64,000 nucleotides of DNA. It comes from Patescibacteria group bacterium (GTDB lineage: Bacteria; Patescibacteriota; Patescibacteriia; UM-FILTER-42-10). The stretch covers positions 16,415-80,414 of the forward strand of contig JBAYGW010000003.1 of assembly GCA_041666485.1 (NCBI GenBank), written 5' to 3'. The notes beneath the pieces were generated by a model, which saw only the letters and a list, made by a program, of their open reading frames with translations, was not told the DNA's origin and searched no databases. Both the position numbers and the translations under genes were made by a program. Positions within the stretch are counted from its first letter, which is position 1; the number at the start of each line of letters is the position of its first letter. Shown here piece by piece: positions 14,002 to 55,810 of the stretch.

Positions 14002-14418
14002 ATGAAAATTGTAATTTGCGGAAGTATGTCGTCAGCAGTTAAGATGTTAAACGCTGAGAAAGAATTACTTCAAAAAGGCCATAAAGTTGTATTACCAAAA
14101 CATACAAAAGAATATGCAGAAATAGAATCGGAGGCGGACACATCACATGAATCAATCAAGGACAAAATTGAACAAGATCTAATACGAGACTATTTTGAAG
14201 AGATAAAAAACGCTGATGCAGTTTTGATTATTAATGTTGATAAATACGGTATTCAAAATTATATCGGTGGAAATGCTTTTCTGGAAATGGGTTTTGCATA
14301 TGTTCTCAGTAAACCAATTTATATACTCAATCAAATTCCGGAAATATTTTATAAAGATGAGATTTTGGCAATGCAGCCGATTACACTTAACGGAAATTTA
14401 TCTAAAATACATTTATAG
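14002..14418 (+). CDS. nucleoside 2-deoxyribosyltransferase / DNPH1(Rcl)-like protein
   Basis: MKIVICGSM N-terminus and NAFLEMGFAYVLSKPIYIL (catalytic Glu context) typical of NDT/Rcl fold. Confidence 0.5.
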   Translation: MKIVICGSMSSAVKMLNAEKELLQKGHKVVLPKHTKEYAEIESEADTSHESIKDKIEQDLIRDYFEEIKNADAVLIINVDKYGIQNYIGGNAFLEMGFAYVLSKPIYILNQIPEIFYKDEILAMQPITLNGNLSKIHL

Positions 14419-24497: not shown

Positions 24498-24589
24498 TTC
24501 TGCTCCTTTCGTGGCAAACCGTGAAGCTTTCACCGCAAACAACCGTTTGGGAAACGGTTTTTTAACTTATCACTCCGACTGACGCAAGT

Positions 24590-30001: not shown

Positions 30002-30427
30002 ATGACCAAAGCACAAATCAAGGGACATCAAGTTGTTTGTTCCGCGTTTATAGAAAGAAATAAAAGGTTTTTGATTGTCATGGATCCCAAATTCAAAGTT
30101 TGGCGGGTTCCCGGAGGCAGACCGGAGCACGGTGAAAAGCTTGAAGATACTTTGATACGAGAAATGCAGGAAGAAACAGGTATAACATTTTCCGACCCCA
30201 AATTCATCGGCTTTGGCCAGGATCAGCAGTTTAAAGTGGATGATAAACTGGAAACATCGCGTTTGATTATGTATTTTCATGTGCATACCGACCAGGAACC
30301 GGTGCTTGACCCGAACGAAGCAGAACAGCACAAATGGGTTACGCTTGACGAACTCAAGGAAATAGATTTAGATAACAAGGAAGGGGCGCTTACCGATTTT
30401 TTTAATCGTAATCCGAATTTTAAATAA
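30002..30427 (+). CDS. NUDIX hydrolase
   Basis: Nudix box GGRPEHGEKLEDTLIREMQEETGI. Confidence 0.8.
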   Translation: MTKAQIKGHQVVCSAFIERNKRFLIVMDPKFKVWRVPGGRPEHGEKLEDTLIREMQEETGITFSDPKFIGFGQDQQFKVDDKLETSRLIMYFHVHTDQEPVLDPNEAEQHKWVTLDELKEIDLDNKEGALTDFFNRNPNFK

Positions 30428-30434: not shown

Positions 30435-30812
30435 ATGAATGAAAATGTCATAGTCAAAGAGTCAAGTATCAATAATAAAGGCGTTTTTGCCACACGCGAT
30501 TTTAAAAAGGGTGAAGTAGTGCTCCCCTGGCAGACAAATACTATCCTAACCATGGAAGAAGTTAAAAAATTGCCGGCATCAGAAAGAAACTATATCGCCA
30601 ACTATGCGGGGGGTAAATATCTGCATCAACAAGAGCCGGAAAGATATGTTAACCACTCCTGCGATCCGAATACAGAAACTGGTGATGATTGTGACGTAGC
30701 GATCAGAGATATTAAATCTGGTGAAGAAATTACTTCCGATTATTCCAAGGCAAAGTTTAATATGCACTTTGTATGCAACTGCGGGAGTAAAAATTGCCGC
30801 AAGTATATTTAA
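30435..30812 (+). CDS. SET-domain protein-lysine methyltransferase
   Basis: GVFATRDFKKGEVV, RYVNHSCDPNTE, GEEITSDY, post-SET CNCGSKNCR. Confidence 0.75.
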   Translation: MNENVIVKESSINNKGVFATRDFKKGEVVLPWQTNTILTMEEVKKLPASERNYIANYAGGKYLHQQEPERYVNHSCDPNTETGDDCDVAIRDIKSGEEITSDYSKAKFNMHFVCNCGSKNCRKYI

Positions 30813-30838: not shown

Positions 30839-31297
30839 ATGTCGGATCAACGAAAAGTAATCCCGGGAGTACATCTCATTTTCCAAAAATATAATAATGA
30901 CATCGGCGAGAACGAGTATCTGCTCCACAAGCGCATGAATACCAACTTTTTTGACAAACACTTTTCCGTTCCCGGCGGGCATATTGATGATTATGAAACC
31001 CCTACCGACTGCGTGGTACGCGAAGGAAAAGAAGAACTTGGTGTGGATATTGATCCAAAATACATAAAATTTGCTAATGTACTTTACAGGATTAAAAAAT
31101 CCGATCATGAAGTGCGCATTGACTTTTGCTACATCATTACCAAATGGAAAGGCATATTGAAGGCCAATGAACAGCATAAACACTCTGAGCCGGCCTGGTA
31201 TCCACTCAGCAAATTCCCTACACCCGTAGTTCCTTATGTATTGCAGGCAATACAAGATATTGAAAGTGGAATTGCATACACAAAGACAGATATTTAG
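30839..31297 (+). CDS. NUDIX hydrolase
   Basis: PGGHIDDYETPTDCVVREGKEELGV. Confidence 0.75.
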   Translation: MSDQRKVIPGVHLIFQKYNNDIGENEYLLHKRMNTNFFDKHFSVPGGHIDDYETPTDCVVREGKEELGVDIDPKYIKFANVLYRIKKSDHEVRIDFCYIITKWKGILKANEQHKHSEPAWYPLSKFPTPVVPYVLQAIQDIESGIAYTKTDI

Positions 31298-31351: not shown

Positions 31352-31789
31352 ATGTTTACAATCGGAACATTCGGCATAATCAAAGATGAAAATGAACGGG
31401 TATTACTCTGTCACCGCCGGGATTATGATTTTTGGAATCTGCCTGGAGGCGGAGTAAAAGAAAATGAAACTCCCTGGGACGCTGTAATTCGGGAAATAAG
31501 GGAAGAAACGGGACTGGAAGCTCGGATCACTCACCTCTCGGGCGTGTACAGCAAGCCGGATAAAAATGAAATTGTGTTTTCTTTTGTTTGCGAAATAGCG
31601 GGCGGGGAAACTACTTTAACTGACGAGGCGGACAAAATAGCATATTTTGAAGTTGACCAGATTCCTAAAAATACTTCCCCGAAACAAGTGGAACGGATCA
31701 AAGATTATTTTGCTGATCCATCCAAAACCCACTACAAGGCGCAAACCGGCGCGTCATCAATTGATCTGATCAAAGCGGGAAGACTTTAA
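31352..31789 (+). CDS. NUDIX hydrolase
   Basis: LPGGGVKENETPWDAVIREIREETGLE. Confidence 0.8.
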   Translation: MFTIGTFGIIKDENERVLLCHRRDYDFWNLPGGGVKENETPWDAVIREIREETGLEARITHLSGVYSKPDKNEIVFSFVCEIAGGETTLTDEADKIAYFEVDQIPKNTSPKQVERIKDYFADPSKTHYKAQTGASSIDLIKAGRL

Positions 31790-33191: not shown

Positions 33192-34784
33192 TTATTGGAT
33201 GATTCCTCCACCCACCTGAACGCCGTTTCGGTATTCAATTGCATAAGGGAAAAATCCGGCATTGATGATCGGCTGGCCGTAGCGGTTGAAAATTCTGACA
33301 TGCGGTCCTCCGCCCGGCCCGGCACCGGTAATGATTTCATCCCTACCATCCTGATCCAAATCAGCGATTCCGACATTTACTCCCCCTCGGAATGCGGTAT
33401 CATAGGCGAAAAATCCCGGAGTGAACTTAATATTGCCATAGGGGTCAAAAATTCTGACGTGCGCTCCCATTCGTACATTGGTTCCGGTAATTATCTCGTC
33501 CCGTCCGTCTTTATCCAGGTCGCCGGCGGCAACTTTAATGCCGTGCCGGAGATCTTCACGATACGCAAAAAATCCCGGAGAAAATTTCAGATTGCCGTCT
33601 CCGCCAAAAACACGTACATGCGGACCGCCGCCGGATTCTGTACCGGTAATTATTTCTGATTTACCGTCTCCGTCCAGATCGCCGGCTGCAACTTTTACAC
33701 CCAGTAAATAGTTATAATTATAGGCGGAAAATTCCTTTAACAAATAATATTTTCCGTCACGATATTCAAATACTCTTACTAAGTGCCCGCCGACTCCGGC
33801 GCCAGTGATTATTTCTTTTGTTCCGTTACCGTTTACATCCCCAATCGCAACATTGACACCGCCGCCGAAATTTTCGTCATAAGCCATGAAAGAATTTATC
33901 TGTATTCCTTCAATATTAAACAATCTGACTTCCGGTTTTCTGCCGTCCTGCGGACCGACAACGACTTCCGCTATCCCGTCCAGTGTGATATCACCAACAG
34001 CCAGATTTACTCCGCCGAGAAATTCTTTTTCATATACCAAAAATTCTCTGACAAAATTGCCGTCTTTTCCGAAAACTTTAACGTATGGCTCCTCCCATTT
34101 GCTGGTAGCAACAACAATGCCGGTTGATTTTGAGTCACCGATAACCTGAGGAGTTGGAATATTTGTCTGATCATCATCCTTGATCGGGACAGACGGTGTT
34201 GTCCGTGCAGTAATTTTCAGTTTATCCTGATTGCTGAAACTAAACATCATTGATGCTTCATAAGCATTTCTATCAGCATAATAGATATCTACCGTATGTT
34301 TGGATTCTGTTATCGTCTCTATTGCTGTTTTAGTACGTGCGGCATGAACACCGGAATTATCAATCACCAATCTTCCGTCAAAATATACCCATGAATCATC
34401 ATCACTGGTTATGGACAGGACATAGTCGCCAGGAAAATCGGTTGTAACATAAGACTGCCAGTGAACACCGAAATTTCGGTCGTGTCCCAGATTATCCTCT
34501 TCCTTTGCAGAATCAAACGGGAAAAAATTATTACCAAAATTCAAATTATCATCAATTCTGGCAAAACGAAAATACTTATTGTCATACCAGTCAGTATCCC
34601 AAGTGCCTAGCGGATTGCCGTGATTATTATCAGGCCACTTCGCACTGGGAACTGCCATATCAGGATGTAACTCAGAATAGTTATAATACCTGCCATACCA
34701 GCCGGTATCACCTTCCGCACTACGTACCCCGAACGGGATAAATAATCCGACTACTGCCAAAATTAATATTGATTTTTTAATCAT
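33192..34784 (-). CDS. secreted PA14-domain + FG-GAP-repeat (beta-propeller) protein
   Basis: Signal peptide; PA14-like GDYVLSITSDDDSWVYFDGRLVIDN; >=5 repeats of G(D/N)xDxDGxxEIITG. Confidence 0.7.
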   Translation of the reverse strand: MIKKSILILAVVGLFIPFGVRSAEGDTGWYGRYYNYSELHPDMAVPSAKWPDNNHGNPLGTWDTDWYDNKYFRFARIDDNLNFGNNFFPFDSAKEEDNLGHDRNFGVHWQSYVTTDFPGDYVLSITSDDDSWVYFDGRLVIDNSGVHAARTKTAIETITESKHTVDIYYADRNAYEASMMFSFSNQDKLKITARTTPSVPIKDDDQTNIPTPQVIGDSKSTGIVVATSKWEEPYVKVFGKDGNFVREFLVYEKEFLGGVNLAVGDITLDGIAEVVVGPQDGRKPEVRLFNIEGIQINSFMAYDENFGGGVNVAIGDVNGNGTKEIITGAGVGGHLVRVFEYRDGKYYLLKEFSAYNYNYLLGVKVAAGDLDGDGKSEIITGTESGGGPHVRVFGGDGNLKFSPGFFAYREDLRHGIKVAAGDLDKDGRDEIITGTNVRMGAHVRIFDPYGNIKFTPGFFAYDTAFRGGVNVGIADLDQDGRDEIITGAGPGGGPHVRIFNRYGQPIINAGFFPYAIEYRNGVQVGGGIIQ

Positions 34785-34912
34785 TTTCTTTCAAATTATA
34801 TATTTATCAGCAACGTTGGATACTATCACATTTGTATCCCCCTGTCAATACCTGAAGAAAAAACGCTAAATTTAGCGTTAATTAAAGTCTATAATAATTC
34901 ATTATTCAAACC

Positions 34913-36415
34913 TTAGGTAATTGTAAAAATATTGATTTTTTCAATCGCTTTCTTTGCCAGTTCAATTCTTTCCCTGCGATTCGCGTAAAAAGTGAACAGT
35001 TTACTACCCTTTTTAACTTCCTGTCCAACCCTTTTGTGGAGGTAAATGCCGGCCAATTTTTCTGAAGGCGCACCTAGTGTTCTCGCAATTTCGTCAATTG
35101 CTTTATTATCTACTGCGGTTATTTTACCTGACTTTGCGGAAAGTACACGGTAATACTCACCGCCTAAGACCACTGCGTCGGAATCAATTGTAGAATTACC
35201 ACCCTGTTCCTTGATCACCACCTGCATTTTTTTCCACGCCTTACCTGATACCAGAATTTCTTCCGCAACTGATTTTCCCTTACCGCGCGCCACCTGCCCC
35301 GATATTTCCAGAAGTTTTCCCGCCAAAACCAGTGCTTTATCTTCTAAATCTTTCGGCCTGTTACTTTTTTGCTGCAATACCCGGAGAACATCGCGTGATT
35401 CCAAGGCCGGTCCAACCCCTCTGCCGACCGGTTCATTGGCAAAAATTTTTTCAACATGTATTTTAATCCCAAAACGCTTGCCAAGATACATAAACTTTTT
35501 TTCAATCTCATTCGCGGTCTTCATATCCGGAATTTTTGAGGTGATTCCGACCGGCATATCAATCACCAGATACTTGATACCCATGGCAACTTTTTTCGCC
35601 ATAATACTTACCACCATTTTATCAAACGGTTCCAAGGAGAGTGGTTTTGTCACCTGAATAATCAAATCATCCGCCGGAGCAATATTTAAACCACCGCCCC
35701 AGATCATACATACTTTGTTTTTCATCACCATTTGTTTGATTCTGGTCATGGAAAATCCGACCGGAGCCAATACTTCCATAGTATCCGCCGTACCCGACGG
35801 TGAAGTGATCGCCCGGGAGGAGGTTTTTGGAATATATAAACCAAAGGCTGCAACAATCGGAACAACAATCATAGTTGTCCTATTGCCGGCCAAACCGCCG
35901 ACGGAATGTTTATCAACTACAATTTTATTTCCGGAAAATCTCAACTGCTCGCCGGTTTCCGCAATTGATTTTGTAAGATAATACAGCTCCAGTGGAGTAT
36001 AAGGCCTTGCAAAACTAGACGCGACAAAATATGATGTTTCCACCGGTCCGAGTCTGCGGCTGACAATATCTGCTATGATTGAATGAATTTCCTCATAACT
36101 TAAAACACCGCCCTTAATTTTCTTATTAATTGCTTTTACTGATTCCGGACGTTCAACGATTGAAACCTCAATGATTTGATCTTTCTTCATCGGGTACTTC
36201 GCCCAGATCTCTTCAAAAAAACCGATCTCCCCCGGCTTTATTTCATTTTCCGCCAGGTTTACAGTAGCAAATATTCTTTTACGGTTATGCCAGGACAAAC
36301 CGATATGGTCATTAGCATGAATACCAAAATTGAGGGCTTCTTTTTCATTTAAAAGCACCTTCGGCATCTCGCCGGTTTCAATATCAATTTTTTTTGCCCT
36401 TAAATAAAATGCCAT
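34913..36415 (-). CDS. AMP phosphorylase (thymidine-phosphorylase family, archaeal DeoA-type)
   Basis: Near full-length similarity to Thermococcus AMPpase incl. HSVGGLAGNRTTMIVVPIVAA, PKTSSRAITSPSGTADTMEV. Confidence 0.85.
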   Translation of the reverse strand: MAFYLRAKKIDIETGEMPKVLLNEKEALNFGIHANDHIGLSWHNRKRIFATVNLAENEIKPGEIGFFEEIWAKYPMKKDQIIEVSIVERPESVKAINKKIKGGVLSYEEIHSIIADIVSRRLGPVETSYFVASSFARPYTPLELYYLTKSIAETGEQLRFSGNKIVVDKHSVGGLAGNRTTMIVVPIVAAFGLYIPKTSSRAITSPSGTADTMEVLAPVGFSMTRIKQMVMKNKVCMIWGGGLNIAPADDLIIQVTKPLSLEPFDKMVVSIMAKKVAMGIKYLVIDMPVGITSKIPDMKTANEIEKKFMYLGKRFGIKIHVEKIFANEPVGRGVGPALESRDVLRVLQQKSNRPKDLEDKALVLAGKLLEISGQVARGKGKSVAEEILVSGKAWKKMQVVIKEQGGNSTIDSDAVVLGGEYYRVLSAKSGKITAVDNKAIDEIARTLGAPSEKLAGIYLHKRVGQEVKKGSKLFTFYANRRERIELAKKAIEKINIFTIT

Positions 36416-36480
36416 GATTAGTAATTCGTAATTAGCAATTGGTAATTAGTAATTAGCAACGTGTAATTCGCTGTATAATG
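36416..36480 (-). promoter_or_regulatory. tandem AATTAC-repeat array in leader of AMP phosphorylase gene
   Basis: cgAATTACacgttgctAATTACtAATTACcaattgctAATTACgAATTACtaatcATG (read toward gene); near-identical array before guaB. Confidence 0.35.
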
Positions 36481-36516
36481 CCGTATGTACAGGTCTGATA
36501 TTAAGATGTAAAAAAA

Positions 36517-37800
36517 TTACTTATCCCCATCCTTCCAATGTCTGAGCGCAACGGCTAACTCTCCGTGGTCTTTGGCATACTCATCCAGATCAATCCCCGC
36601 AAGCGTCGCGTCTAATGCCTGTTTAACGGCTGTCGCTCCGGCAAATGTTCCTTCCGGATGACCATGGATACCCCCGCCAAAATTCAGAATTACATCTTTG
36701 CCGAATATTTTATAAAGCGAAGGTATTAAATTGGGATACAACCCGCCTGATGCGATCGGGAATGTTGATTTAATATTAAACCACTTACTGCGCAGAAAAT
36801 CATCTATTTCAACTACATCACTTTTTCCACCCTCCATTTTCCCCACAACCGTGCCGGTGTGCAGCTGATCAATACCTGCCAGACGCGCCAATTTTGACAG
36901 CACTAGCATACTCATTCCATGTTTTTGGTTCTTAGTGAACATAGAATGCCCAGCTCTGTGACCGTGAATTATAAGACCTAAATCCCGTTTGCGTAACATT
37001 TGCACATTATCAAGTCCTACGGAAACCATGTCAATCATTACCACTTCACCGCCGAGGCTTTTGACCAGCTGCGCTCTTTTGATCATTTCATCCGGTTGTG
37101 CTGTTACATTAAACACGCACAATTTTTTGCAGCCTGTTTCTTTTTCCGCTTTATCCCTCATTTTAAGAGTAAGCCGGACTCGCTGATCAAATCGGCTGAA
37201 AGAAAGGTCGGTTAAATTTTCATCATCTTTGACCAGATCAATTCCACCGATAAAGACCTGGTAAGACAGTGTGGCATGCTGCAGAGCGGACAAGCCCAGC
37301 TTTGGTTTCAGAATTGATCCCAGTATGGGCCGGTCATAAATTCCCATAATGCGCCTGATCCCTTTTATGCCGAAACGCGGGCCCTGAAAACTTTCAACAT
37401 ATTCTTTCGGAAAGTCTACATCCACTAATCTGAGATTCCTTATGATCTTCATACTAAAAACATTACCCGCCACACCGGATAAAAATTGCGGGATGCTCCC
37501 CTTTTCAAAAAGCGCCAAGGGATAGGCAACTTTGAATGTATGGGCTTTTTTATCAATATCATATGCTTTCGCGCTCAGCTTCGTGAATGTTGCTTTGGAT
37601 AATGTGGCAAGATCCGTCCAGGTTCCAATAGAAGATTCCGCCGCCACTCCGCCCGCCGCATCGTTAAAATCAACATTGGTATCCATATAGAATGAAGCGA
37701 CAAGTTCTGTTTTCTTCGGCTGATAGCTTTTTTTTACAAATTTTTGGTAAAATTTATTCATATTATAGATTCTTGAAAATCCATGGATAATGCTTTTCAA
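36517..37800 (-). CDS. rbcL: ribulose-1,5-bisphosphate carboxylase large subunit, form II/III
   Basis: KPKLG carbamylation site, GGIDLVKDDEN, IHGHRAGHSMF, GGGIHGHP; alternative start at 37761. Confidence 0.88.
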   Translation of the reverse strand: MKSIIHGFSRIYNMNKFYQKFVKKSYQPKKTELVASFYMDTNVDFNDAAGGVAAESSIGTWTDLATLSKATFTKLSAKAYDIDKKAHTFKVAYPLALFEKGSIPQFLSGVAGNVFSMKIIRNLRLVDVDFPKEYVESFQGPRFGIKGIRRIMGIYDRPILGSILKPKLGLSALQHATLSYQVFIGGIDLVKDDENLTDLSFSRFDQRVRLTLKMRDKAEKETGCKKLCVFNVTAQPDEMIKRAQLVKSLGGEVVMIDMVSVGLDNVQMLRKRDLGLIIHGHRAGHSMFTKNQKHGMSMLVLSKLARLAGIDQLHTGTVVGKMEGGKSDVVEIDDFLRSKWFNIKSTFPIASGGLYPNLIPSLYKIFGKDVILNFGGGIHGHPEGTFAGATAVKQALDATLAGIDLDEYAKDHGELAVALRHWKDGDK

Positions 37801-38719
37801 CTAAATAAGCAACATCACGTGGCTTAATAATACCAAATTCACAAATTATTCCTTTGATGAATTTAGATGGAATGCGGTCAAAAGCGAAATTGATTATTTT
37901 TAATCCTTTCGGACCGTTCGGCCAGATTTCTTTGCGATCCCGCAATTCAATGCCAACATATTTGCTGATAAATGTTTCCGGATCGGTTTTTAAAAGTGAA
38001 GCGGCGACATAAACCGGAATTTTTTCGTGGTTAGCAACCTGGGCGATTCCGTAGCTACCGACTTTGTTGATCACTGAGCCGCCGGATGTAACCGAGTCTG
38101 CACCCAAAAAAGCAATATCCACCATCACTTCCCGGCCACTGGTTCTGCTGATCAGAAAAGCGGCAGCTGAATCAGCCACCATTGTGACGTCAATCTTTCG
38201 CTTTAATAGATTCTTAGCTGTTATTCGCCCCTGGAAAAGCGGGCGGGTTTCTGTACAAAAAACATGCGGCATCTTTGAATGTTTATTAGCCTCAGTAATA
38301 ATATGCTCCACAGTTGAAGAATGGCAGTGCGTGAATACTTTCATATCTTGCTTAATCAGTTTTGCGCCGGCTACGGCAATTTTTTGATCATGATATTTCA
38401 GCAAAACTAAAAAAAGATGGCAAGCTTTTTTTAGCAACTTCGCCAACTCAGGCACGGATAAACCTTCTTTATTATTCTCTAAATAATGTAAAACGAATTG
38501 GACTGAATTACGGGACAGCGGTTCGGTCGGCCTTGCTTCCGCCAAGGCTTTGCCACTTTTACGAATAGCAGAAAGAAACTGGCTTTTATTTTTTTTTAGC
38601 AATTGATTACTTTCCAACTGCAACGCGTCCAAAATTACTTTGGTTATCTGCGTTGCACCCTGTATTTCTAAAGATGCTATTTTTGTTACTGTTTTTTGTA
38701 CTGCGCTATTCATAAACAC
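37763..38719 (-). CDS. ribose-1,5-bisphosphate isomerase (eIF-2B alpha/beta/delta family)
   Basis: e2b2-family core …VTMVADSAAAFL…FLGADSVTSGGSVINKVGSYG. Confidence 0.72.
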   Translation of the reverse strand: MFMNSAVQKTVTKIASLEIQGATQITKVILDALQLESNQLLKKNKSQFLSAIRKSGKALAEARPTEPLSRNSVQFVLHYLENNKEGLSVPELAKLLKKACHLFLVLLKYHDQKIAVAGAKLIKQDMKVFTHCHSSTVEHIITEANKHSKMPHVFCTETRPLFQGRITAKNLLKRKIDVTMVADSAAAFLISRTSGREVMVDIAFLGADSVTSGGSVINKVGSYGIAQVANHEKIPVYVAASLLKTDPETFISKYVGIELRDRKEIWPNGPKGLKIINFAFDRIPSKFIKGIICEFGIIKPRDVAYLVEKHYPWIFKNL

Positions 38720-38734
38720 AGTATACCATTTATA

Positions 38735-40558
38735 TCATTCCCATTCAATCGTCCCTGGCGGCTTGTTGGTGAAATCAAAAACAATCAAATCTATTTGTTT
38801 TATTCTTTTTAAGCGTCCGACAACCTGGTCAATAAAAGATCGGGACAACGGGAAATACTTGACCGTCATTGCTTCCTCCGATTGCACGGGGCGCAAAATT
38901 ACTGTGTAGCCGCCCGCAATGGAATATGGGGCCAGGATTACGGGAAATTGCCAGATTTTAGAATCCAGTCGGGCTTTTTTCATTTCAGACTGTACTATGT
39001 CGTCAATATTCTGCAGTAGAGCCACGTTTTTTTTCGTCAGCAGAAGTTTAATATTTTTTCCTCCGCTAATATCTTTTTTCCTGCTAAAAATCACCCAGCA
39101 CACCCGATTTACATTTTGAATCTGATTTGCCACGAGCGGACCGAGCTTTTGCATTTGAATAGTATTCATTTCTCCGGAGAAAACCGCGGGATGGGCGTAA
39201 GTCCGTTCATCGCCCTGAACGCCCACACTTCTGACCGGTAGTACCCAGCCTTTAATATCTGATTTGTTCTCATAATTGAACTGCGAGATTATTATATCCA
39301 AATCGGCATTTTCTTTCTTTACATTTACATGCACCTTATTTCCCCGGGAACAAATTATACGGATTGCCAACCCCGGACCGGGAAATGGATGACGATTGAT
39401 AATTTCTCCAGGCAAGCCGATCTGCTTGCCGAGCTGCCGTACTTCGTCTTTGTACAAGTCTTTCAAAGGCTCAATGACCAACCCGCGTTTTATTAATTCC
39501 AAAACTTCTTTTACCCGATTATGGTGTGTTTTTATTTTATCGGCGTGCTTCGTCCCGCCCGATTCAATTGTATCCGGATAAATAGTCCCCTGCGCCAGAA
39601 TCCATTCCTTTGGATTCAGTTTGAATTTCTTCATCGCAATTCTTTGAACATCCAGATACGTCCTGCCGATAATCTCGCGTTTGCGTTCCGGACTGATAAT
39701 ACCTTTTAACCTCTTATAGAATAGTACGGAAGCATCCATTACTTCCAGATTGGTAAACCCTAGTTTATTGAAACGTTTTTTTATTTCCTCTGATTCATTT
39801 TTTCTCATGAACCCCAGATCAATATGCAGACCAAACACCTTTTCTTTGCCCAAGATCCGATTCAGTAACCCGAAACATACGGCAGAATCAACTCCGCCGG
39901 AAACCAGCAAAAATACCTTGCGACTTCCTACTTTCCTAACTATCTCTTTTTCAATATCAGTTAAGTAATGTTTAATATCCCATTCCTTTTTAGCGCCGCA
40001 GATACTGAAAACAAAGTTATTAATTAATTCCATTCCACGTTCTGTATGTGATACTTCGGGGTGAAACTGGACTCCGTATATTTTCATTATGCTGTTTCCC
40101 ATCGCTGCTACCGGGCAATCAGCAGTCTTTGCCATGACTTTAAATCCCTTCGGCACATTTAATACAAGATCACCATGACTCATCCAAACCTGTTCGTTTG
40201 CACCAAATTTCCTGAACAGCTTGCCGGGTTCAATTACTGACAGGTTGGCAAAACCATATTCTCTCACATCACCCCTGACTACTTTTCCGCCCATTAGATA
40301 GGTGATCAGTTGGTGACCATAGCAAACACCTAGGATTGGTACGCCGCTTTTCAGTATTCTCCGGTCAAATTTTATTTTCCCGTCATAAACGCTGTTTGGT
40401 CCGCCGGACAGGATTATTCCCCAGGACGACCTTAATTCTTCAAGTGGCGTTTCGGGATTGTAAATATTAGCTAAAACACCAAGTTGCCGGATTCTGCGTG
40501 CAATCAGGTGGGTATATTGTGAACCAAAATCCAGAATTGTTATGTGTTTTTGTTTCAT
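38735..40558 (-). CDS. guaA: GMP synthase (glutamine-hydrolysing)
   Basis: GATase ILDFGSQYTHLIARRIR, PP-loop SGGVDSAV, C-terminal …IEWE; 607 aa (longer than usual). Confidence 0.9.
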   Translation of the reverse strand: MKQKHITILDFGSQYTHLIARRIRQLGVLANIYNPETPLEELRSSWGIILSGGPNSVYDGKIKFDRRILKSGVPILGVCYGHQLITYLMGGKVVRGDVREYGFANLSVIEPGKLFRKFGANEQVWMSHGDLVLNVPKGFKVMAKTADCPVAAMGNSIMKIYGVQFHPEVSHTERGMELINNFVFSICGAKKEWDIKHYLTDIEKEIVRKVGSRKVFLLVSGGVDSAVCFGLLNRILGKEKVFGLHIDLGFMRKNESEEIKKRFNKLGFTNLEVMDASVLFYKRLKGIISPERKREIIGRTYLDVQRIAMKKFKLNPKEWILAQGTIYPDTIESGGTKHADKIKTHHNRVKEVLELIKRGLVIEPLKDLYKDEVRQLGKQIGLPGEIINRHPFPGPGLAIRIICSRGNKVHVNVKKENADLDIIISQFNYENKSDIKGWVLPVRSVGVQGDERTYAHPAVFSGEMNTIQMQKLGPLVANQIQNVNRVCWVIFSRKKDISGGKNIKLLLTKKNVALLQNIDDIVQSEMKKARLDSKIWQFPVILAPYSIAGGYTVILRPVQSEEAMTVKYFPLSRSFIDQVVGRLKRIKQIDLIVFDFTNKPPGTIEWE

Positions 40559-40644
40559 ACTTGTCTTTATTGTAAAATATACTTACAATTAAAACAACAT
40601 TTTAACCCTAATCCCTTGTCCCTACTACCTAACTTCGCATATTA

Positions 40645-40705
40645 CCAGGTAGAGATTACGAATTACCAAATTGCCAATTACTAATTACTAGTTCCTAAAC
40701 CCTAA
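40645..40705 (+). promoter_or_regulatory. tandem AATTAC-repeat array in guaA/guaB divergent region, immediately before guaB
   Basis: gagATTACgAATTACcaaattgccAATTACtAATTACtag…ATG. Confidence 0.35.
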
Positions 40706-40711
40706 AAAAAT

Positions 40712-42187
40712 ATGTTTACCCAGTTTGAAGAAACATTAACATTTGATGATGTATTGTTAGTTCCGCAAAAGTCATCAATTCTTCCGAATGAAACCGAGAT
40801 TAAAACCAGGCTGACACGCAGGATAAATTTAAATATTCCATTAATCTCATCCCCGATGGACACTGTAACCGAACACCGGCTGGCGATCGCCCTGGCACTG
40901 CACGGCGGAATCGGGATAATTCATAAAAATATGCCTGCCGACAAACAGGCGCAGGAAGTAAGTTTTGTAAAAAGATTTGAAAACGGCTTTATTGAAAATC
41001 CTGCCACACTGCAGCCGGAAGATCCGATTGATGACGCGGCGGAAATTAGAGACAAAAAAGGATACAAAAAAATTCCGATTGTTGATAAAAACAACAAGCT
41101 GGTGGGAATGATTACCGAGCAGGATTATTTCGTGCCCGACGATTTGAAACTGCCGATAAAATTTAAAATGAAACGTTTGAATGAAATTGTGGTCGCTAAG
41201 CACGGCATCACCCTCCAACAAGCAAATAAAATTATTAGGGAGAAAAAGCTCACCGCATTGCCGATCGTTAATAAGCAGGGAAAACTGGTTAGTATGGTTA
41301 CCAGAAAAGATTTGGAAAAAAACGAGCAGCACCCCAATGCCTGCAAGGATGATAAAAAACAACTGCGGGTCGGTGCCGCTATTTCCGTCGGCCCGGAAGC
41401 TCTGGAACGCGCCAAATATTTGGTTGCCGCCGGAGTAGATGTATTGGTCGTTGATACCGCTCACGGCCATACTAAGGGCGTATTGGATACGGTAAGAGCG
41501 CTGAAAAAAAATAAATTGTTTTCTAATATTGATATCATCGCCGGGAATGTCGCAACAGAAGAAGGAACCAGAGATCTGATCAGGGCTGGTGCGGACGCTG
41601 TAAAGGTAGGGGTCGGGCCGGGATCAATCTGTACCACCAGAGTAATTGCGGGGATCGGTGTACCACAAATCAGCGCGATTCTGGCGGCGGTAAAAGGCCG
41701 GGGTAAATCCAATATTCCCATTATTGCTGACGGCGGTATCCGATACTCAGGCGATATAGTAAAAGCACTTGGTGCTAAAGCGGATTCCGTAATGATCGGC
41801 AGTCTTTTTGCCGGTTGTGAAGAAACACCAGGTGAAATAGAGTATGAAGGTGGCAAAATGTATAAATCCTACCGCGGGATGGGTTCAAAAGAAGCCATGA
41901 TCCACGGATCCAAAGACCGTTACGGACAGGGAGAGCAAAAAGACAGTGAAAAACTGGTGCCGGAAGGTGTATCAGCCAGGGTTATTTATAAAGGGCTGGT
42001 TTCAAGACACATATATCAGTTGATCGGCGGGATTAGATCCGGTATGGGTTATATCGGCTCTAAAACAATTTCGGAGTTGCACAGGAAAGCAAGATTTATT
42101 AAAATCAGCTCTGCGGGACTGCGAGAAAGTCATCCACATGATGTAACAATTACAAAACAGCCGCCAAATTATCATTCGGAAAAATAA
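40712..42187 (+). CDS. guaB: IMP dehydrogenase
   Basis: [13 protein letters not shown] pair, [11 protein letters not shown] catalytic loop. Confidence 0.92.
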
Positions 42188-42231
42188 TAAACAAAAGACG
42201 GATTTCACATCCGTCTTTTTAATTCGCTCTA

Positions 42232-43737
42232 TTAAATTCTTTTTCTCAACTTCATGTGCGCCTGTTGCAACTGCGTCAAAAGACTCGTTTCGTTGATAAA
42301 ATTATGCTTACGATTAGAAATAACAAAATTCCCGTTAATCATCAGATCCCTGATATTTCTACCCCCATACGTAATCATATTACTGACCAATGTCTTCGGG
42401 TCATTTGAATTGTACGGTAAGAATCCGCGATCCTGCAGTTTCCAGAACGCGATATCCGCCCGATATCCCGGCAGTATTTTGCCGACTTTTGGCAATCCCA
42501 ACAGTTTCGCACCTTGTGCAGTAATCATATTGAATAAATCACTATAGGGAACGATTTTTTTGTTTTGATGCATCGTTTTAGTCTGTAGCGCTTCCGTAAG
42601 CAAATCCAGCCTGTTTTTACTGACCACGCTGTCCGTTCCCAAGGCAATCTGTTTGGTTGCTTTAATCTTATGAAATAACGGATAATCAAACTGACCGCTA
42701 CGGTGCAGAAGATTGGATGTCGGCAGATGCACAACCCCGACCCTTCTTTTCTGAATTAATTCTACATCTTCCCTGCCCACATGCACGACATGCGACATCA
42801 TGGTCCTGGGATTTAATAGTCCAAACCGATCCAATACTTTCACCGGATGTTCTCCAAATTTTTTCATTGACTTCTCCAATGACTCCTTAGTTTCCGCGAC
42901 ATGGATCGTAAACAATGCATTATACTTTTTCTGAAGCAATCTAACTTTTTTAAAAATTGCCGGCGATGCCTTGTGCGGTTCATGGATCGCAATTGCGGGC
43001 TCCGTATGATATTTTGCTTTATTCTTCAGATATCTTTCAACCATTGCCGGAGTATTTTCCGGATGCGAGTTGCTCACCGCACTGACAGCATTAATCACTT
43101 CATGACCGGTTAGTTTTCCCGCATCGTCAATCGGTTCAAACACTCCATAGTGGCTAAGCGTTGTTGATATGCCGAACTTTTGTTGTTCAGTAAAATCCCC
43201 TACTGCCCCCAGAAAAAAATCGTCCTCAGTCATTTTCCCTTCTAACCTTGCCATACCTTTCAGTGTCTTTTCTAAATTCGCTTCGGAAAATGTTAATGTG
43301 GATCTGAGTAGATACATCGGGGGATGTGCGTGTGCATTAACTAACCCGGGGGTAACAACTATTCCACCGCCGAGCTCGGCATCATAAATTAGGTCAATCT
43401 CGGTTAAATCAACAAAAGATAATTCAGTTGCTTTTAATACTTTTACTATCACTCCATCCTCAATCAGAATTGATCGTCCGGATACAACCTCTAATTTTTC
43501 ATTCTCATTGATGGTAATTAAAAAGGGAATTCCGTGAATTAGAATTTTTCTCGGATTCCCTTCGCGCAACAAAGTATACCTGTTTTTCCCTTTCTGGCCA
43601 GCAGCAAAATTAATATCTTTCTGCCGATATTCAATCTCGCTTTTAAGTTCGGAAAACTCGTTTCTCATTTGCTTGATATTATAACAGGATTTGCTTTTTT
43701 GCCCAAATTGCGTGAGCTGCGACCATTTCATCCTCAT
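42232..43737 (-). CDS. amidohydrolase (MtaD/SsnA/guanine-deaminase-like nucleobase/nucleoside deaminase)
   Basis: PGLVNAHAHPPMYLLR metal-binding HxH region. Confidence 0.62.
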   Translation of the reverse strand: MRMKWSQLTQFGQKSKSCYNIKQMRNEFSELKSEIEYRQKDINFAAGQKGKNRYTLLREGNPRKILIHGIPFLITINENEKLEVVSGRSILIEDGVIVKVLKATELSFVDLTEIDLIYDAELGGGIVVTPGLVNAHAHPPMYLLRSTLTFSEANLEKTLKGMARLEGKMTEDDFFLGAVGDFTEQQKFGISTTLSHYGVFEPIDDAGKLTGHEVINAVSAVSNSHPENTPAMVERYLKNKAKYHTEPAIAIHEPHKASPAIFKKVRLLQKKYNALFTIHVAETKESLEKSMKKFGEHPVKVLDRFGLLNPRTMMSHVVHVGREDVELIQKRRVGVVHLPTSNLLHRSGQFDYPLFHKIKATKQIALGTDSVVSKNRLDLLTEALQTKTMHQNKKIVPYSDLFNMITAQGAKLLGLPKVGKILPGYRADIAFWKLQDRGFLPYNSNDPKTLVSNMITYGGRNIRDLMINGNFVISNRKHNFINETSLLTQLQQAHMKLRKRI

Positions 43738-44713
43738 TTTTAATTAATAGCTCAATGGAAGGTAGCGCTTCCACACTCCCCCAATTCCCCAGGGCAACCG
43801 CTACATTTCTCATGAATCCGCGATATTTTGTTCTCTTTATCGGGCTGTTTTTGAATCTAGCCATAAAATCCTCTGCAGATAATTTTGCCAAATCTACTAG
43901 AGACGGGGCGATTAAATCTTCATGGGCAGTAAATTCTTGAAATGACGTTGGTAATGATTTGCTGTTCCAAGGGCAAACCTCCTGACAAATATCACAGCCG
44001 TAAATTCTATTTTTCATAAGCTTGCGAAATTCTACTGGTATTTCATTTTTTAATTCTATCGTAAGATATGAAATACAACGCCTAGCATCAAGCACCTTGT
44101 TTGCCACCAACGCTCCGGTAGGACAGCTCTTTCTGCATCGCTGGCAGGTTCCGCATGATCCAATCAGTTTATTTACATAACTGTCTAATTCTATATCTAT
44201 TAATATCTCACCCAGAAATATATATGAACCGGTTCTGTAATTTATCAAATTAGTGTTGTTGCCAGTAAATCCTAATCCTGCGCGCTCAGCAAACTCCCTT
44301 TCCAAAAAAGGCCCCGTATCAACATACATCTTTGCGCTGACATTTTTTTTCATCACAACTGAAATGGCTTCAACATATTTTTCCAGTCTCGTTTTAACTA
44401 TCTTGTGATAGTCGTCAAACCACGCATAGCGGGCAATGATTCCTCTTGAAGGATCATTTAGTAATTCAGCCGGGATATCCTGCGTAAAATAACTTACCCC
44501 AACCATAATAATTGATTTTGCTTGGGGAAATATTTTTCTCGGATCTTCGCGTTTTTCCTGGCCGCGCCGGATCCAATCCATATCCCCCGCCATTCCTAAG
44601 CTTATCCACTGGTCAAGTTGACGTTTTTGTTTGCTGGGCTGTACCGGTATTATTCCAAGCAAATCAAAACCTAGTTTTTTTCCGGCATTATGAATACTGC
44701 GAGTAATTTCCAT
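43679..44713 (-). CDS. queG: epoxyqueuosine reductase
   Basis: Two ferredoxin-type Cys clusters CGTCQRCRKSCP / CDICQEVCPWN. Confidence 0.75.
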   Translation of the reverse strand: MEITRSIHNAGKKLGFDLLGIIPVQPSKQKRQLDQWISLGMAGDMDWIRRGQEKREDPRKIFPQAKSIIMVGVSYFTQDIPAELLNDPSRGIIARYAWFDDYHKIVKTRLEKYVEAISVVMKKNVSAKMYVDTGPFLEREFAERAGLGFTGNNTNLINYRTGSYIFLGEILIDIELDSYVNKLIGSCGTCQRCRKSCPTGALVANKVLDARRCISYLTIELKNEIPVEFRKLMKNRIYGCDICQEVCPWNSKSLPTSFQEFTAHEDLIAPSLVDLAKLSAEDFMARFKNSPIKRTKYRGFMRNVAVALGNWGSVEALPSIELLIKNEDEMVAAHAIWAKKQILL

Positions 44714-45364: not shown

Positions 45365-46486
45365 ATGATTAAAGCCATCATATTTGATTTCGGGAACGTT
45401 ATAGCCAGTTTTGACAATGGTTTATTTTTGAAAAAAATTTCCAAATATACCAGTAAATCTATTGACAAGTTGTATGAACTAATCTATAAAAAATCAAAAC
45501 TGCCAAGCCAATACGAACAGGGAAAAATTAACTCCGATGAATTTTACAACCAAGTTGTAAAACTATGTGATCTGAAAATCAGTCAGATACAATTTAGAGA
45601 CGCCTATACTCAGATATTCACACCGATTCCGGAAACAATTGAGCTGATTAATGCACTTAAGCCAAATTATAAGCTGGGGCTTTTATCCAGCACCAGCGAG
45701 TGGGATTTTGAATTTGGATTCAAACCGCTAATTGATGTGTCTATTTTTGATTCAATTACATTAACCTATCAGCTAGGAATTAAAAAACCGGATCCGAAAT
45801 TATTTCACGATGCTTTAAATAAACTGAGTGTTGCCCCAAACGAAACTGCCTATATTGATGATCTCCCGGAAACAATTGAAGTAGCCAATAATCTGGGTAT
45901 TCATGGAATATTATTTACCGGTAATGACACCCTGCAAGCATCACTGCATAAACTGGGGGTTGAAGTTAATAATACCTACCGCCCGAATTATGTGCAAAAA
46001 GTTACGATAGCTGACGAGAATGACAAAAAAATTGGATACAAATACCGGGATCAAATCACAGAGACAGATATTTTTCGGGCGACCGGCTTGTGGATTACCA
46101 ATTCAAAAGGCGAAATACTTTTAGCCCGAAGAGCACTGTCAAAAAAAATGCATCCGGGATTATGGAGTACCGCCGTTGCCGGAACAGTTGAAGAAGATGA
46201 AACATACGAACAAAATGTAATCAAAGAAGCTGAAGAGGAACTTGGTATCGTTGGCGAAACTTTTATTCCGTATGAAAAAACCAGAATCCGAGGAAAACAC
46301 AATTTCTTCATCCAATGGTACACTTTAGTCATAAATAAAAAAGCTGAGGAATTCATGTTGCAACCAGAGGAAGTGGTTGAAGTAAAATGGTTCAAAAAAT
46401 CCGAGCTAAAATTGTTGCTGAAAGAAAAACCGGAAATATTTACGTCTTCGCTGCCTCAGTGGGTATCTTTATTCCTGGCGAAATAG
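45365..46486 (+). CDS. HAD-superfamily hydrolase fused to C-terminal NUDIX domain
   Basis: HAD motif I IIFDFGNVI, motif IV YIDD; Nudix box GTVEEDETYEQNVIKEAEEELGI. Confidence 0.7.
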   Translation: MIKAIIFDFGNVIASFDNGLFLKKISKYTSKSIDKLYELIYKKSKLPSQYEQGKINSDEFYNQVVKLCDLKISQIQFRDAYTQIFTPIPETIELINALKPNYKLGLLSSTSEWDFEFGFKPLIDVSIFDSITLTYQLGIKKPDPKLFHDALNKLSVAPNETAYIDDLPETIEVANNLGIHGILFTGNDTLQASLHKLGVEVNNTYRPNYVQKVTIADENDKKIGYKYRDQITETDIFRATGLWITNSKGEILLARRALSKKMHPGLWSTAVAGTVEEDETYEQNVIKEAEEELGIVGETFIPYEKTRIRGKHNFFIQWYTLVINKKAEEFMLQPEEVVEVKWFKKSELKLLLKEKPEIFTSSLPQWVSLFLAK

Positions 46487-50658: not shown

Positions 50659-51093
50659 TTGATGGAAATAAAACAATTCACCGCCACCAAAGCGTTTATC
50701 AAATATAACGGTAAAATTCTGATTCTCCGTGAATCAGGAAAATATGAAGACGGAACTAATATGGGATATTATGATATTCCCGGTGGCAGAGTGAAGCCCG
50801 GGCAAAGGTTTGACGAAAGCTTGAGGAGGGAAATTAAAGAAGAAACCGGATTGAATATTGCGATCGGTGAACCGTTTTTTGTGAGTGAATGGCGACCGGA
50901 AAAAAACGGCGAGCAGTGGCAGATTGTCGGGATCTTTTTTGAATGTCAGGCGGACATTGACCGAGTGATTTTAAGCAATGATCACGACAAATACGAGTGG
51001 ATTGATCCAAAAGAATATATCAAATTTAAACTTATTGATAACTTAAAGCCGGCATTTAAGAGTTATAATCAGCGTCAAACAGTTAATCAATAA
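50659..51093 (+). CDS. NUDIX hydrolase
   Basis: IPGGRVKPGQRFDESLRREIKEETGL. Confidence 0.8.
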   Translation: MMEIKQFTATKAFIKYNGKILILRESGKYEDGTNMGYYDIPGGRVKPGQRFDESLRREIKEETGLNIAIGEPFFVSEWRPEKNGEQWQIVGIFFECQADIDRVILSNDHDKYEWIDPKEYIKFKLIDNLKPAFKSYNQRQTVNQ

Positions 51094-52066
51094 GTTTTAA
51101 ATACCGAGAGCGGTTAACCCGCTCTTTTTCTTTTTCAAACGCCAATTTAAATTCGGGATAAATTTCGGAAACTCTAACTAACCTATCTTCAACTATTACT
51201 AGTGGATCAATCACACGCATTTTAGATTTTTTGTGGATGTAATCATAAATATCCGCATCTTCAATAACTTTATTACGATCAAGATTTTTTAATCTCCTAG
51301 TCGCTTCAATGATATCATTGTTACTGCAATTTTCTAATTTCTCAATAACTACGTCATCATCGGTTGCTAAATCTTCTTTCATTAATACCCCTGCTTCTAT
51401 AGCCATAACTATAATATTTTTTAACATATTGTAAGAATAGACACCCCAATTGGAATGCCAGAAATTTCCGCACATCCACAATGACAATTCAGCGAATTCT
51501 TTGGCAATATCTTTATCATGAAAAACAATCATATCATTTTTAACAACCAGATCGTTGATGATTATCTTTGCTTTCTTTTGATCTATCCTATTCGCAGTAA
51601 CACCATCACCTAGGGTATACTGCAAGCGATCCGCACAGATATTCGGCAGTTCATTTTCTGCTAGCGGCCATCTTTTTATATCTTCAACAGCGTCCGTATC
51701 AATTTTATATTTCTTCAAAACTGCACTGATGTCAGTCTGAAAATATTTTTTGTTCACGCTTTCTTGATAATCCTCTTTTTCATAACGGTTATATAAGTGA
51801 TCTATTACATGGGAAAATGTTCCGTGCGATATGTCATGCAGCAAACCGGCAAGCTGTTCTTCAAGTCCCGCACCGAATTGTTTTAATAACCAGTACACTC
51901 CCAATGAATGTTCAAATCGGGTTGTATCAGCTTCCGGATAAAAATAATGGTAAATTCCATATTGATGTATTTTTTTTAACCTCTGCAATTGCGGAGTATC
52001 AATCAATTCCAAAACTACCGGCTCTGTGATTTCAATGTTTCCATAGATTTTATCTGTGAATCGCAT
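51083..52066 (-). CDS. HD-domain phosphohydrolase
   Basis: HSLGV…LLHDISH HD motif. Confidence 0.7.
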   Translation of the reverse strand: MRFTDKIYGNIEITEPVVLELIDTPQLQRLKKIHQYGIYHYFYPEADTTRFEHSLGVYWLLKQFGAGLEEQLAGLLHDISHGTFSHVIDHLYNRYEKEDYQESVNKKYFQTDISAVLKKYKIDTDAVEDIKRWPLAENELPNICADRLQYTLGDGVTANRIDQKKAKIIINDLVVKNDMIVFHDKDIAKEFAELSLWMCGNFWHSNWGVYSYNMLKNIIVMAIEAGVLMKEDLATDDDVVIEKLENCSNNDIIEATRRLKNLDRNKVIEDADIYDYIHKKSKMRVIDPLVIVEDRLVRVSEIYPEFKLAFEKEKERVNRSRYLKLID

Positions 52067-55653: not shown

Positions 55654-55810
55654 ACCGTCTTATTGTACCAAATATCAATGTTTCTGGCGACTTGTCATTA
55701 CAGTCACGTAGCAACCCTGACTTGCCAGAGTAAATGAAATATGGTAAAAACAAAACTGTGCCCATCTTCAGGGCGCAAATGACCAAAACCCGTTTTTGGG
55801 AGGTATTGGT

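Follow-up and report, generated by a model that had tools for sequence, protein, structure and literature searches.

Introduction

The archaeal AMP pathway, or pentose bisphosphate pathway, of Thermococcus kodakarensis was reportedly worked out by Sato in 2007 and by Aono in 2012 and 2015. In many ultra-small, host-dependent bacteria belonging to the Candidate Phyla Radiation (CPR, Patescibacteria), a RuBisCO shunt is thought to provide a route to energy from scavenged nucleotides. Jaffe et al. (2019, Mol Biol Evol 36:435; PMC6389311) defined the Form III-c RuBisCO, and found its gene beside e2b2 and deoA, the three often being consecutive, with the RuBisCO gene in the central position and sometimes fused. 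In PER-1, a member of the Peregrinibacteria, a form II/III RuBisCO has been reported to cluster with genes of pyrimidine and purine metabolism (Wrighton et al., 2016, ISME J; PMC5113843, Fig. 4a), so the idea of a RuBisCO beside purine genes is already in print. Purine-auxotrophic bacteria, on the other hand, offer examples of a deaminase acting together with GuaB and GuaA, namely AdeC of Borrelia burgdorferi and the adenosine deaminase of Helicobacter pylori (PMC2764106, PMC3368855). Here we analyze a stretch of 64,000 nucleotides of a Patescibacteria group bacterium (contig JBAYGW010000003.1, positions 16,415 to 80,414; hereafter the window), in which the trio e2b2-rbcL-deoA lies next to guaA, guaB and an amidohydrolase gene.

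An earlier note on this DNA, made from the letters alone, had presented the six genes as one nucleotide-salvage "supercluster". Our comparison with related loci divides it into two separately conserved modules, e2b2-rbcL-deoA and amidohydrolase/guaB/guaA, which are found apart in most CPR genomes, and whose junction is an old one, limited to a single clade. We consider it likely that a RuBisCO shunt and a guanylate-supply set, each conserved alone in the Patescibacteria, have been joined in this single Kerfeldbacteria-related clade. The trio itself has been published; new are the dissection into two modules, the amidohydrolase-guaB-guaA module, and the joining of guaA to the trio as a clade-specific variant.

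Gene content of the locus

The host is a groundwater bacterium with a tiny genome, belonging to the Patescibacteria/CPR, and the G+C content of the window is 40.5%. The RbcL of the window is identical to an NCBI protein of a Patescibacteria group bacterium metagenome-assembled genome (MAG), where it is annotated as type III. The closest species-level genome in GTDB is that of isolate SO_2016_GW1_116, with an RbcL 97% identical, followed among named relatives by a Candidatus Kerfeldbacteria MAG (69%).

Positions 34913-43737 contain six intact open reading frames (ORFs), for which the ORF list, Pfam and NCBIfam bear out the families named in the earlier note, and the catalytic motifs are intact in all six proteins. 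Four of them follow each other on the minus strand: guaA (38735-40558), encoding a glutamine-hydrolysing GMP synthase of 607 aa; e2b2 (37763-38713), an IF-2B-family isomerase of 316 aa homologous to ribose-1,5-bisphosphate (R15P) isomerase; rbcL (36517-37761), a Form III-c RuBisCO large chain of 414 aa; and deoA (34913-36415), an archaeal-type AMP phosphorylase of 500 aa with an extra N-terminal domain. The three-gene AMP shunt is thus complete and contiguous, as had been claimed, deoA, rbcL and e2b2 adjoining each other. The gene guaB (40712-42187, plus strand) is divergent from guaA and encodes an IMP dehydrogenase of 491 aa with a CBS pair, and it is followed on the minus strand by the amidohydrolase gene (42232-43668), the product of which (478 aa) is CPR-specific and falls in the cog0402-type deaminase branch.

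Three start codons were corrected by comparison with the lengths of orthologues. The rbcL gene starts at ATG 37761 and not at TTG 37800, e2b2 at ATG 38713, two codons downstream of the start of the longest ORF, and the amidohydrolase gene at 43668 and not at 43737. With the latter start, the amidohydrolase gene does not overlap queG (43679-44713, minus strand; epoxyqueuosine reductase, 372.6 bits on TIGR00276 against a cut-off of 200), which sits 10 nt upstream of it.

Two conserved modules and their junction

The conservation of the trio was followed in 80 GTDB loci around RbcL homologs, with flanks of up to 10 kb (surveyed loci are cited by number, as L001). Outside the clade of the window, e2b2 is found with rbcL in all 16 CPR loci; the fetched stretch of 13 also includes deoA, usually with the gene order unchanged. 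No guaA, guaB or amidohydrolase gene is present within 10 kb in any of the 16.

The second module was found in the absence of RuBisCO. Three distant CPR contigs (L087-L089) have the amidohydrolase gene, guaB on the opposite strand and a guaA encoding 600-609 aa, and none of the three has a RuBisCO nearby. A metagenome scan with the amidohydrolase gave 80 further loci at 44-92% identity, which were pooled with L087-L089 for the counts. Where at least 3.6 kb of downstream sequence was available, guaB was present in 40 of 45 loci, guaA in 33 and both in 31, and five further loci have guaB-guaA immediately upstream. An unsupervised clustering of the ORFs of 59 loci returned the amidohydrolase (58 loci), guaB (45) and guaA (37) as the leading families, the next being a SpoU methylase (20 of 59), and no other purine gene recurred near the module in this clustering. 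RbcL was present in only 4 of the 31 amidohydrolase loci with at least 7.5 kb downstream, and all four are members of one Kerfeldbacteria-related clade, that of the window, in which RbcL identity is 65% or more. In evolution, the deaminase is hence partnered with guaB/guaA and not with the RuBisCO trio.

Within this clade, the full order queG-amidohydrolase-guaB (opposite strand)-guaA-e2b2-rbcL-deoA is found in L001, L003, L083, L084 and L090-L092 (RbcL 81-97% identical) and also in L095 (65%), while L085 (68%) shows the core guaB/guaA-e2b2-rbcL-deoA. Since the order recurs in relatives with RbcL 65-97% identical, the arrangement is not due to chance. The queG gene is upstream of the amidohydrolase gene in 5 of 63 informative loci, all of the window clade; it is a clade-specific neighbour and a member of neither conserved module.

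RuBisCO and the other enzymes of the shunt

By model scores, structure matches and a neighbour-joining (NJ) tree, the RbcL of the window is a bona fide Form III-c RuBisCO, and neither a form II/III enzyme, the label given in the earlier note, nor a RuBisCO-like protein (form IV) without catalytic residues, the outcome by which that note would have been refuted. It passes the type III model (TIGR03326, 512.5 bits vs a cut-off of 497.45) and stays below the form II model (NF010002, 275 vs 489) and all RuBisCO-like models (NF007095, 260 vs 409; TIGR03332, 214 vs 514; OiaX, 234 vs 700). The activation and catalytic residues of a carboxylase are all present and invariant across a 36-sequence alignment, in the motifs AAESSIGTW (40-48), GNVF (99-102), KPKLG (152-156), KDDE (178-181), HGHRAGH (266-272), LHTGT (300-304), GKMEG (307-311), SGG (338-340) and FGGG (361-364). 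Mapped by motif, we take them to be E60, T65, N123, K175, K177, K201, D203, E204, H294, R295, H327, K334, S379, G381, G403 and G404 in spinach numbering. The top match in the Protein Data Bank (PDB) is the form III enzyme of P. horikoshii (2cwx, 431 bits); other form III structures score 403 (6hun) and 361 bits (1geh of T. kodakarensis), form I and I-like structures about 280-308 bits, and the form II/III enzyme of M. burtonii (5mac) 271 bits in two split stretches.

Phylogenetic placement of RbcL, which had been named beforehand as the test, groups it with III-c sequences. In the NJ tree of 57 sequences (Kimura-corrected distances, 200 bootstraps), it falls within a CPR clade with 92% support that contains four nr sequences named 'Form III-c', and it forms a subclade with the Kerfeldbacteria sequence supported at 100%. 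Sequences of Methanosarcina (III-a), Ammonifex and the archaeal III-b group are placed outside the CPR clade. Database homologs 55-58% identical to the window RbcL are also named 'Form III-c'.

DeoA keeps the architecture of nucleoside phosphorylase-II enzymes (Pfam Glycos_trans_3N, Glycos_transf_3 and PYNP_C, beginning at residue 94) with an extra N-terminal domain of about 85 residues. Its residues 10-487 align to residues 8-480 of the full-length T. kodakarensis AMP phosphorylase (AMPpase; 4ga5, 374 bits), and it passes NF003338 (548 vs 434) and TIGR02645 (526 vs 435). The e2b2 product matches Pfam IF-2B with 212 bits, and the only NCBIfam model that it passes is the broad eIF-2B_rel subfamily model (200.1 vs 185.85). 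Its Cys in THCHS (C130) and its Asp in GADS (D206) align with C133 and D202 of the T. kodakarensis enzyme (read on 3a11, chain numbering minus 16), which are reported to be the catalytic residues of R15P isomerase (Nakamura et al. 2012). The best PDB matches are R15P isomerases (3a11 and 5yfj, 144-146 bits), and MtnA structures score 82-90 bits. For CPR isomerases in general, the same conclusion was reached by Wrighton et al. (2016; PMC5113843).

GuaA, GuaB and the local purine pathway

GuaA and GuaB are genuine members of their families, in agreement with the earlier note. GuaA exceeds the cut-off of NF000848 (541 vs 400) and contains the motifs GVCYGHQ, HPE, SGGVDS and KPPGTIEWE, corresponding to the GATase triad, the ATP-PPase P-loop and the C-terminal signature. 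Compared with 5tw7, its dimerisation domain at the C-terminus carries an insertion of about 95 aa, located between residues 455 and 551, by which it differs from typical bacterial GMP synthases. A GuaA of 600-609 aa is usual beside the CPR amidohydrolase (median 603 aa in L087-L089 and 37 metagenome loci), and human GMPS, whose C-terminal region is enlarged as well, ranks second among all PDB matches of the window protein. GuaB scores 582 on TIGR01302 (cut-off 481.5), stays under the cut-offs of the GuaB1 GMP-reductase models, and has the catalytic Cys loop. The guaB product next to the amidohydrolase is usually short and without the CBS pair (median 364 aa; 359 aa in L089), while the window clade has the 491-aa form with CBS, as opposed to the short form in L089 and most of L096-L162.

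Purine synthesis is partly represented in the surroundings. The gene purH, for the last two steps from AICAR to IMP, is found at 22908-24542 (minus strand; 592 bits vs a cut-off of 402), 11 kb from the cluster, and the de novo pathway is therefore not wholly absent. L083 and L084 also retain it close to the cluster, and a single purA (adenylosuccinate synthetase) gene was found, in L087, some 2.6 kb downstream of guaA; no further pur gene was seen in any of the fetched 10-kb flanks. The local purine picture is thus that of an 'IMP hub' and not of a total absence of synthesis. The purH gene forms a sharply bounded island of 58.8% G+C in a 40% genome. Its counterparts in L083 and L084 are also G+C-rich (54-57%) and only 51% identical to the purH of the window, compared with 68-88% for neighbouring genes, which looks like an old or repeated horizontal replacement.

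The amidohydrolase family

The amidohydrolase belongs to Pfam Amidohydro_1, and its family, with members in Buchananbacteria, Kerfeldbacteria, Falkowbacteria and others, shows identities of 53-60% and a constant length of about 478 aa. Across 34 family members, there is no variation in the metal ligands, namely H113, H115, H256 (within the HxxE259 motif), H293/H296 and D346, and the pattern HxH, HxxE, H, D is that of mononuclear amidohydrolases. The protein is far below every NCBIfam equivalog cut-off (best model of any kind 167 vs 617; NF012037, MTA/SAH deaminase, 88.9 vs 779; NF005557, 5'-deoxyadenosine deaminase, 129 vs 522). In a search with the single sequence, the closest structures are the MTA/SAH/adenosine deaminases 4f0r, 4dyk, 4gbd, 3lnp and 4dzh. 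The family profile gives the same ranking (4f0r 137, 4dzh 119 and 3lnp 102 bits), with guanine deaminases at 47-67 bits. The name 'MtaD-like deaminase' used previously thus holds as an assignment to the nucleoside/nucleobase-deaminase branch, based on the nearest structures, and goes too far as a functional name, given that no curated equivalog cut-off is reached.

An AlphaFold (AF2) model of the amidohydrolase (pLDDT 89.4, pTM 0.90) gave seven adenosine/MTA deaminases as the top matches in Foldseek, with TM-scores of 0.76-0.82 when normalised to the query and 0.82-0.89 when normalised to the target. E143, which is invariant, corresponds in the alignment to the Glu in the 'PTEGK' stretch of 4f0r, presumably the residue that binds the ribose hydroxyls in this deaminase subgroup. 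Our best guess from sequence, model and analogy is that the enzyme would be an adenine-ring nucleoside deaminase that feeds the hypoxanthine ring to IMP; it is given as a best guess because of the low identity to characterised deaminases and because other deaminases are close behind in the fold search.

Putative transcription signals and repeats

The gap between guaA and e2b2 is 21 nt, with guaA upstream, and the same spacing is found in L001, L083, L084 and L085. The e2b2 stop lies just ahead of the rbcL start (gap of 1 nt), and a spacer of 101 nt separates rbcL from deoA. Because guaA is only 21 nt upstream of e2b2, the four genes guaA-e2b2-rbcL-deoA are probably transcribed as one unit. A scan for terminator-like hairpins outside coding sequence near the cluster revealed two flanking its genes. 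The first (34862-34879, minus strand; AACGCTAAATTTAGCGTT + TTTTCTTC) consists of a hairpin and a T-run 34 nt past the deoA stop, and would probably end the four-gene transcript. The second (42193-42219; AAAAGACGGATGTGAAATCCGTCTTTT) has a stem of 11 bp, lies between the convergent guaB and amidohydrolase genes, and is a probable bidirectional terminator.

An imperfect palindrome of 37 nt (40561-40597) is located directly upstream of the guaA ATG and contains -35/-10-like elements in both directions. On the plus strand, the promoter scan listed TTGTCT-17-TACAAT; on the minus strand, TTGTTT-17-TACAAT was read by eye, its -35 matching at 3 of 6 positions, and was not listed by the scan. The palindrome is nearly invariant in L001, L003, L083 and L084, recognisable in L085 and L095, and conserved even where the entire guaA-guaB spacer amounts to 57 nt. 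We regard it as a candidate bidirectional promoter/operator shared by guaA-e2b2-rbcL-deoA and the divergent guaB, in which case the guaA-side transcript would be nearly leaderless. The window contains a single perfect match to it, and across 2.2 Mb of fetched loci all its occurrences lie upstream of guaA in the window clade. A role as a regulon-wide operator was rejected for the window, where a second match is at chance level.

Repeats of the heptamer TAATTAC occur in two arrays in the window, one of about 5.7 repeats immediately before the deoA start codon (36417-36456, minus strand) and one of the same type in the guaB leader (40655-40698, plus strand). The latter is absent from the shorter guaA-guaB intergenic regions of relatives. 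Other units with a period of 7 or 8 fill the rbcL-deoA spacer in L003, L004, L009, L014, L015, L091 and L095, and, as relatives carry different units in the same spacer, these repeats turn over quickly. A conserved regulatory link between deoA and guaB through the arrays was rejected, since close relatives either lack them or have other ones, and the same spacer of other CPR holds unrelated repeats with a period of 7 or 8. Rfam showed no riboswitch or known RNA in the guaA/guaB or rbcL/deoA spacers; at the gathering threshold, one tRNA was the only match in the whole window, and a permissive search of 34.5-45.4 kb gave chance-level matches only.

Proposed explanation and alternatives

Based on these results, we propose the following scheme. 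From AMP (or another NMP) and phosphate, the AMP phosphorylase would yield ribose-1,5-bisphosphate as well as the free base, the e2b2 isomerase would turn this bisphosphate into ribulose-1,5-bisphosphate (RuBP), and RuBisCO would combine this with CO2 and water to give two 3-phosphoglycerate (3-PGA) for glycolysis. The second module would act as a guanylate-supply set, in which IMP dehydrogenase makes XMP and GMP synthase then GMP, and the zinc-type deaminase would most likely act on a compound with an adenine ring, probably a nucleoside, to give the counterpart with a hypoxanthine ring that feeds IMP. The guaA-e2b2-rbcL-deoA transcript would start at the palindrome region shared with guaB and end at the hairpin past deoA. 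The gene identities, the intact catalytic residues, the III-c placement, the two synteny patterns and the clade limits of the junction are observed, whereas the enzyme activities, co-transcription, promoter function, the substrate of the deaminase and any metabolic hand-over between the modules are inferred.

Several observations weigh against parts of this scheme. DeoA falls about 6 bits short of the TIGR03327 AMP_phos cut-off (528.9 vs 535), and the isomerase is well under the TIGR00511 equivalog cut-off (199.8 vs 314.1). The amidohydrolase is only 22-27% identical to characterised deaminases, and in the fold search the adenosine/MTA deaminases are followed closely by those for isocytosine, triazine, 8-oxoguanine and guanine. 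Co-transcription is deduced only from spacing and consensus scans, and an internal promoter could be present in the 101 nt between rbcL and deoA, where one of the repeat arrays lies. The RbcL tree is an NJ tree only, without II/III, II, I and IV references, so that these forms are excluded through hidden Markov model (HMM) and PDB scores and not by the tree. A gene for a beta-CASP/metallo-beta-lactamase RNase is near e2b2 in 8 of the 16 other CPR loci and is more often upstream of e2b2 elsewhere, which means that the guaA linkage is not a general property of the shunt. Besides, no activity of a Form III-c enzyme has been measured, and Jaffe et al. (2019; PMC6389311) ask for assays.

The alternative that survives best is an integrated recycling of adenine, in which the junction is adaptive, the ribose of AMP serves carbon and energy, and its base, released as adenine by the AMP phosphorylase and deaminated to the hypoxanthine level by the amidohydrolase (whose substrate could also be adenosine or AMP), reaches guanylate by way of GuaB and GuaA, all under common control. 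Apart from a phosphoribosyltransferase or nucleoside phosphorylase, every step needed is encoded side by side, the junction persists over RbcL identities of 65-97%, the guaA spacing is operon-like, the promoter-like palindrome is conserved, the deaminase is closest to adenine-ring deaminases, and Borrelia and H. pylori are established cases of this logic. To this list could be added a type I phosphoribosyltransferase (59094-59861, minus strand), the specificity of which is unclear. However, the modules are apart in most CPR genomes, with neither dependent on the other, tight spacing of unrelated genes is frequent in compact CPR genomes, and no hpt, apt or purine nucleoside phosphorylase gene was identified in the cluster. 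The closest characterised deaminases, moreover, act on nucleosides and not on free adenine, and the invariant E143 aligns with the Glu of 4f0r that we presume to bind ribose. We therefore judge this alternative to be possible but unlikely. The same tentative standing is given to a related idea, that the CPR amidohydrolase is the committed entry from adenylate to guanylate at the level of adenosine or AMP, wired through the bidirectional promoter to the RuBisCO shunt in the Kerfeldbacteria-related clade. If true, AMP would be partitioned between carbon and energy (ribose to 3-PGA) and GMP (base to IMP, XMP and GMP).

Another alternative is a functional tie of the amidohydrolase to queG, 10 nt away on the same strand, in queuosine or 7-deazapurine metabolism. 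The spacing is tight in the window, L001 and L084, but it widens to 195 nt in L083, other genes occupy the queG position in L087-L089, and the 5 of 63 loci with queG upstream are limited to the window clade; such a tie is very improbable. Slightly less probable still is a methionine salvage route, in which an MtaD-like deaminase, an MtnA-family isomerase, a RuBisCO-family enolase/isomerase and a phosphorylase would recycle 5'-methylthioadenosine (MTA). All four families have members in variants of MTA salvage, homologs of the amidohydrolase are annotated by JGI as MTA/SAH deaminase, and MtnA and MtnW models are among the weaker NCBIfam matches. On the other hand, RbcL retains every carboxylase residue and reaches 214-260 bits on MtnW models (cut-offs 409-514) vs 512 on form III, the isomerase matches R15P isomerases better than MtnA structures (144-146 vs 82-90 bits), DeoA is of the AMPpase type with the N-terminal domain, and the deaminase travels with guaB and guaA and not with the trio. 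Equally remote is autotrophic CO2 fixation in a Calvin-type cycle, with the neighbouring genes irrelevant: phosphoribulokinase is known in some CPR, Gottesmanbacteria and Peregrinibacteria (Jaffe et al., 2019; PMC6389311), but neither this enzyme nor a small-subunit domain was found among the ORFs scanned in the window, and rbcL lies between the genes of two enzymes making RuBP from NMP, in the published order of the shunt.

The locus does not overturn current views. It adds one more well-preserved example of the RuBisCO shunt, with the enzyme form settled as III-c, and the unnamed amidohydrolase family, a near-constant partner of guaB/guaA across CPR, is a modest new lead. It is a testable candidate for the missing adenine-to-hypoxanthine step in CPR, which are usually assumed to depend on salvage.

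Other genes of the window and of related loci

The beta-CASP RNases of the other Form III-c loci (L007, L009, L010, L014, L029, L050, L053 and L011) are RNase J/CPSF-like proteins of about 460-490 aa, and in most of these loci their gene immediately precedes e2b2 in the same orientation. The arrangement points to a link from RNA through NMP to the RuBisCO shunt in those lineages.

Next after deoA in the window is a gene for a secreted-looking protein with PA14 and FG-GAP repeats (33192-34784, minus strand), with a promoter-like site at 34848-34820. Its position past deoA is kept across the clade, including the Kerfeldbacteria loci L004 and L086, and it is probably a surface or adhesion protein. 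Five NUDIX-domain proteins, none of them at an equivalog cut-off, are encoded to either side of the cluster within some 21 kb (30002-30427, 30839-31297, 31352-31789, 45365-46486 and 50659-51093, all plus strand), one of them fused to a HAD phosphatase; two NUDIX proteins and the NUDIX-HAD fusion are kept in L001 and L003. A role of these proteins as a source of NMP for the shunt is speculation. Among the NUDIX genes lies one for a SET-domain protein of 125 aa (30435-30812, plus strand), conserved in L001.

Besides the type I phosphoribosyltransferase, the window has other genes related to the handling of nucleotides, which encode a SLOG/LOG-like protein (13291-13779, plus strand), a weakly nucleoside 2-deoxyribosyltransferase-like ORF (14002-14418, plus strand), a Maf nucleotide pyrophosphatase (17463-18041, minus strand) and an HD-domain protein (51083-52066, minus strand). 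The gene for a Peptidase_M29 aminopeptidase (55796-56923, plus strand) is a compositional outlier with about 64% G+C and was likely acquired horizontally. Another G+C-rich stretch (10400-11600, 50-66%) gave no Pfam match for the ORFs tried on both strands and no Rfam match. Its plus strand folds better than shuffled sequences (z = -4.5, vs -1.9 on the minus strand), with a strong hairpin followed by T7 near 11165-11200, and the stretch may represent either a structured RNA or a small gene of foreign origin.

Comparison with known systems

The pathway of T. kodakarensis uses the same three enzyme families as the trio of the window, as seen in the matches to its AMPpase (4ga5, 374 bits) and its RuBisCO (1geh, 361 bits). 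The window differs in its bacterial host, in a RuBisCO of form III-c instead of III-b, in an isomerase below the curated cut-off, and in that neither a nucleoside phosphorylase nor a ribose-1-phosphate kinase branch was observed there. Its genes are clustered, whereas those of the T. kodakarensis AMP pathway are dispersed.

Closest to the locus is the CPR cluster of Jaffe et al. (2019; PMC6389311), which has the same RuBisCO clade, the same three genes, the same order and the same host group (Parcubacteria-type, e.g., Kuenenbacteria). Here, in contrast, guaA is 21 nt upstream, guaB is divergent, and the conserved deaminase gene comes next, while that report makes no mention of purine genes; nor does the window have the rbcL-e2b2 fusion. 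PER-1 differs by its form II/III RuBisCO and by having its AMPpase and isomerase on another scaffold, and an arrangement of guaA, guaB and a deaminase is not described in that report (PMC5113843).

Among the enzymes of the second module, the amidohydrolase has its fold and its set of metal ligands in common with cog0402-type deaminases (4F0R, 4DYK, 4GBD, 4DZH, 3LNP and TM0936). It differs from them by an extra N-terminus of about 45 residues and by the invariant motifs HPPMYLLR and HLPTSNxxH of its family, which differ from those of the characterised enzymes. The CPR deaminase also represents an amidohydrolase family distinct from the deaminases of Borrelia and H. pylori, its evidence being the synteny with guaB/guaA, and purH is present here. 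The logic of the second module would nevertheless be the same as in these two bacteria, in which a deaminase converts the adenine ring to hypoxanthine, followed by IMP dehydrogenase and GMP synthase.

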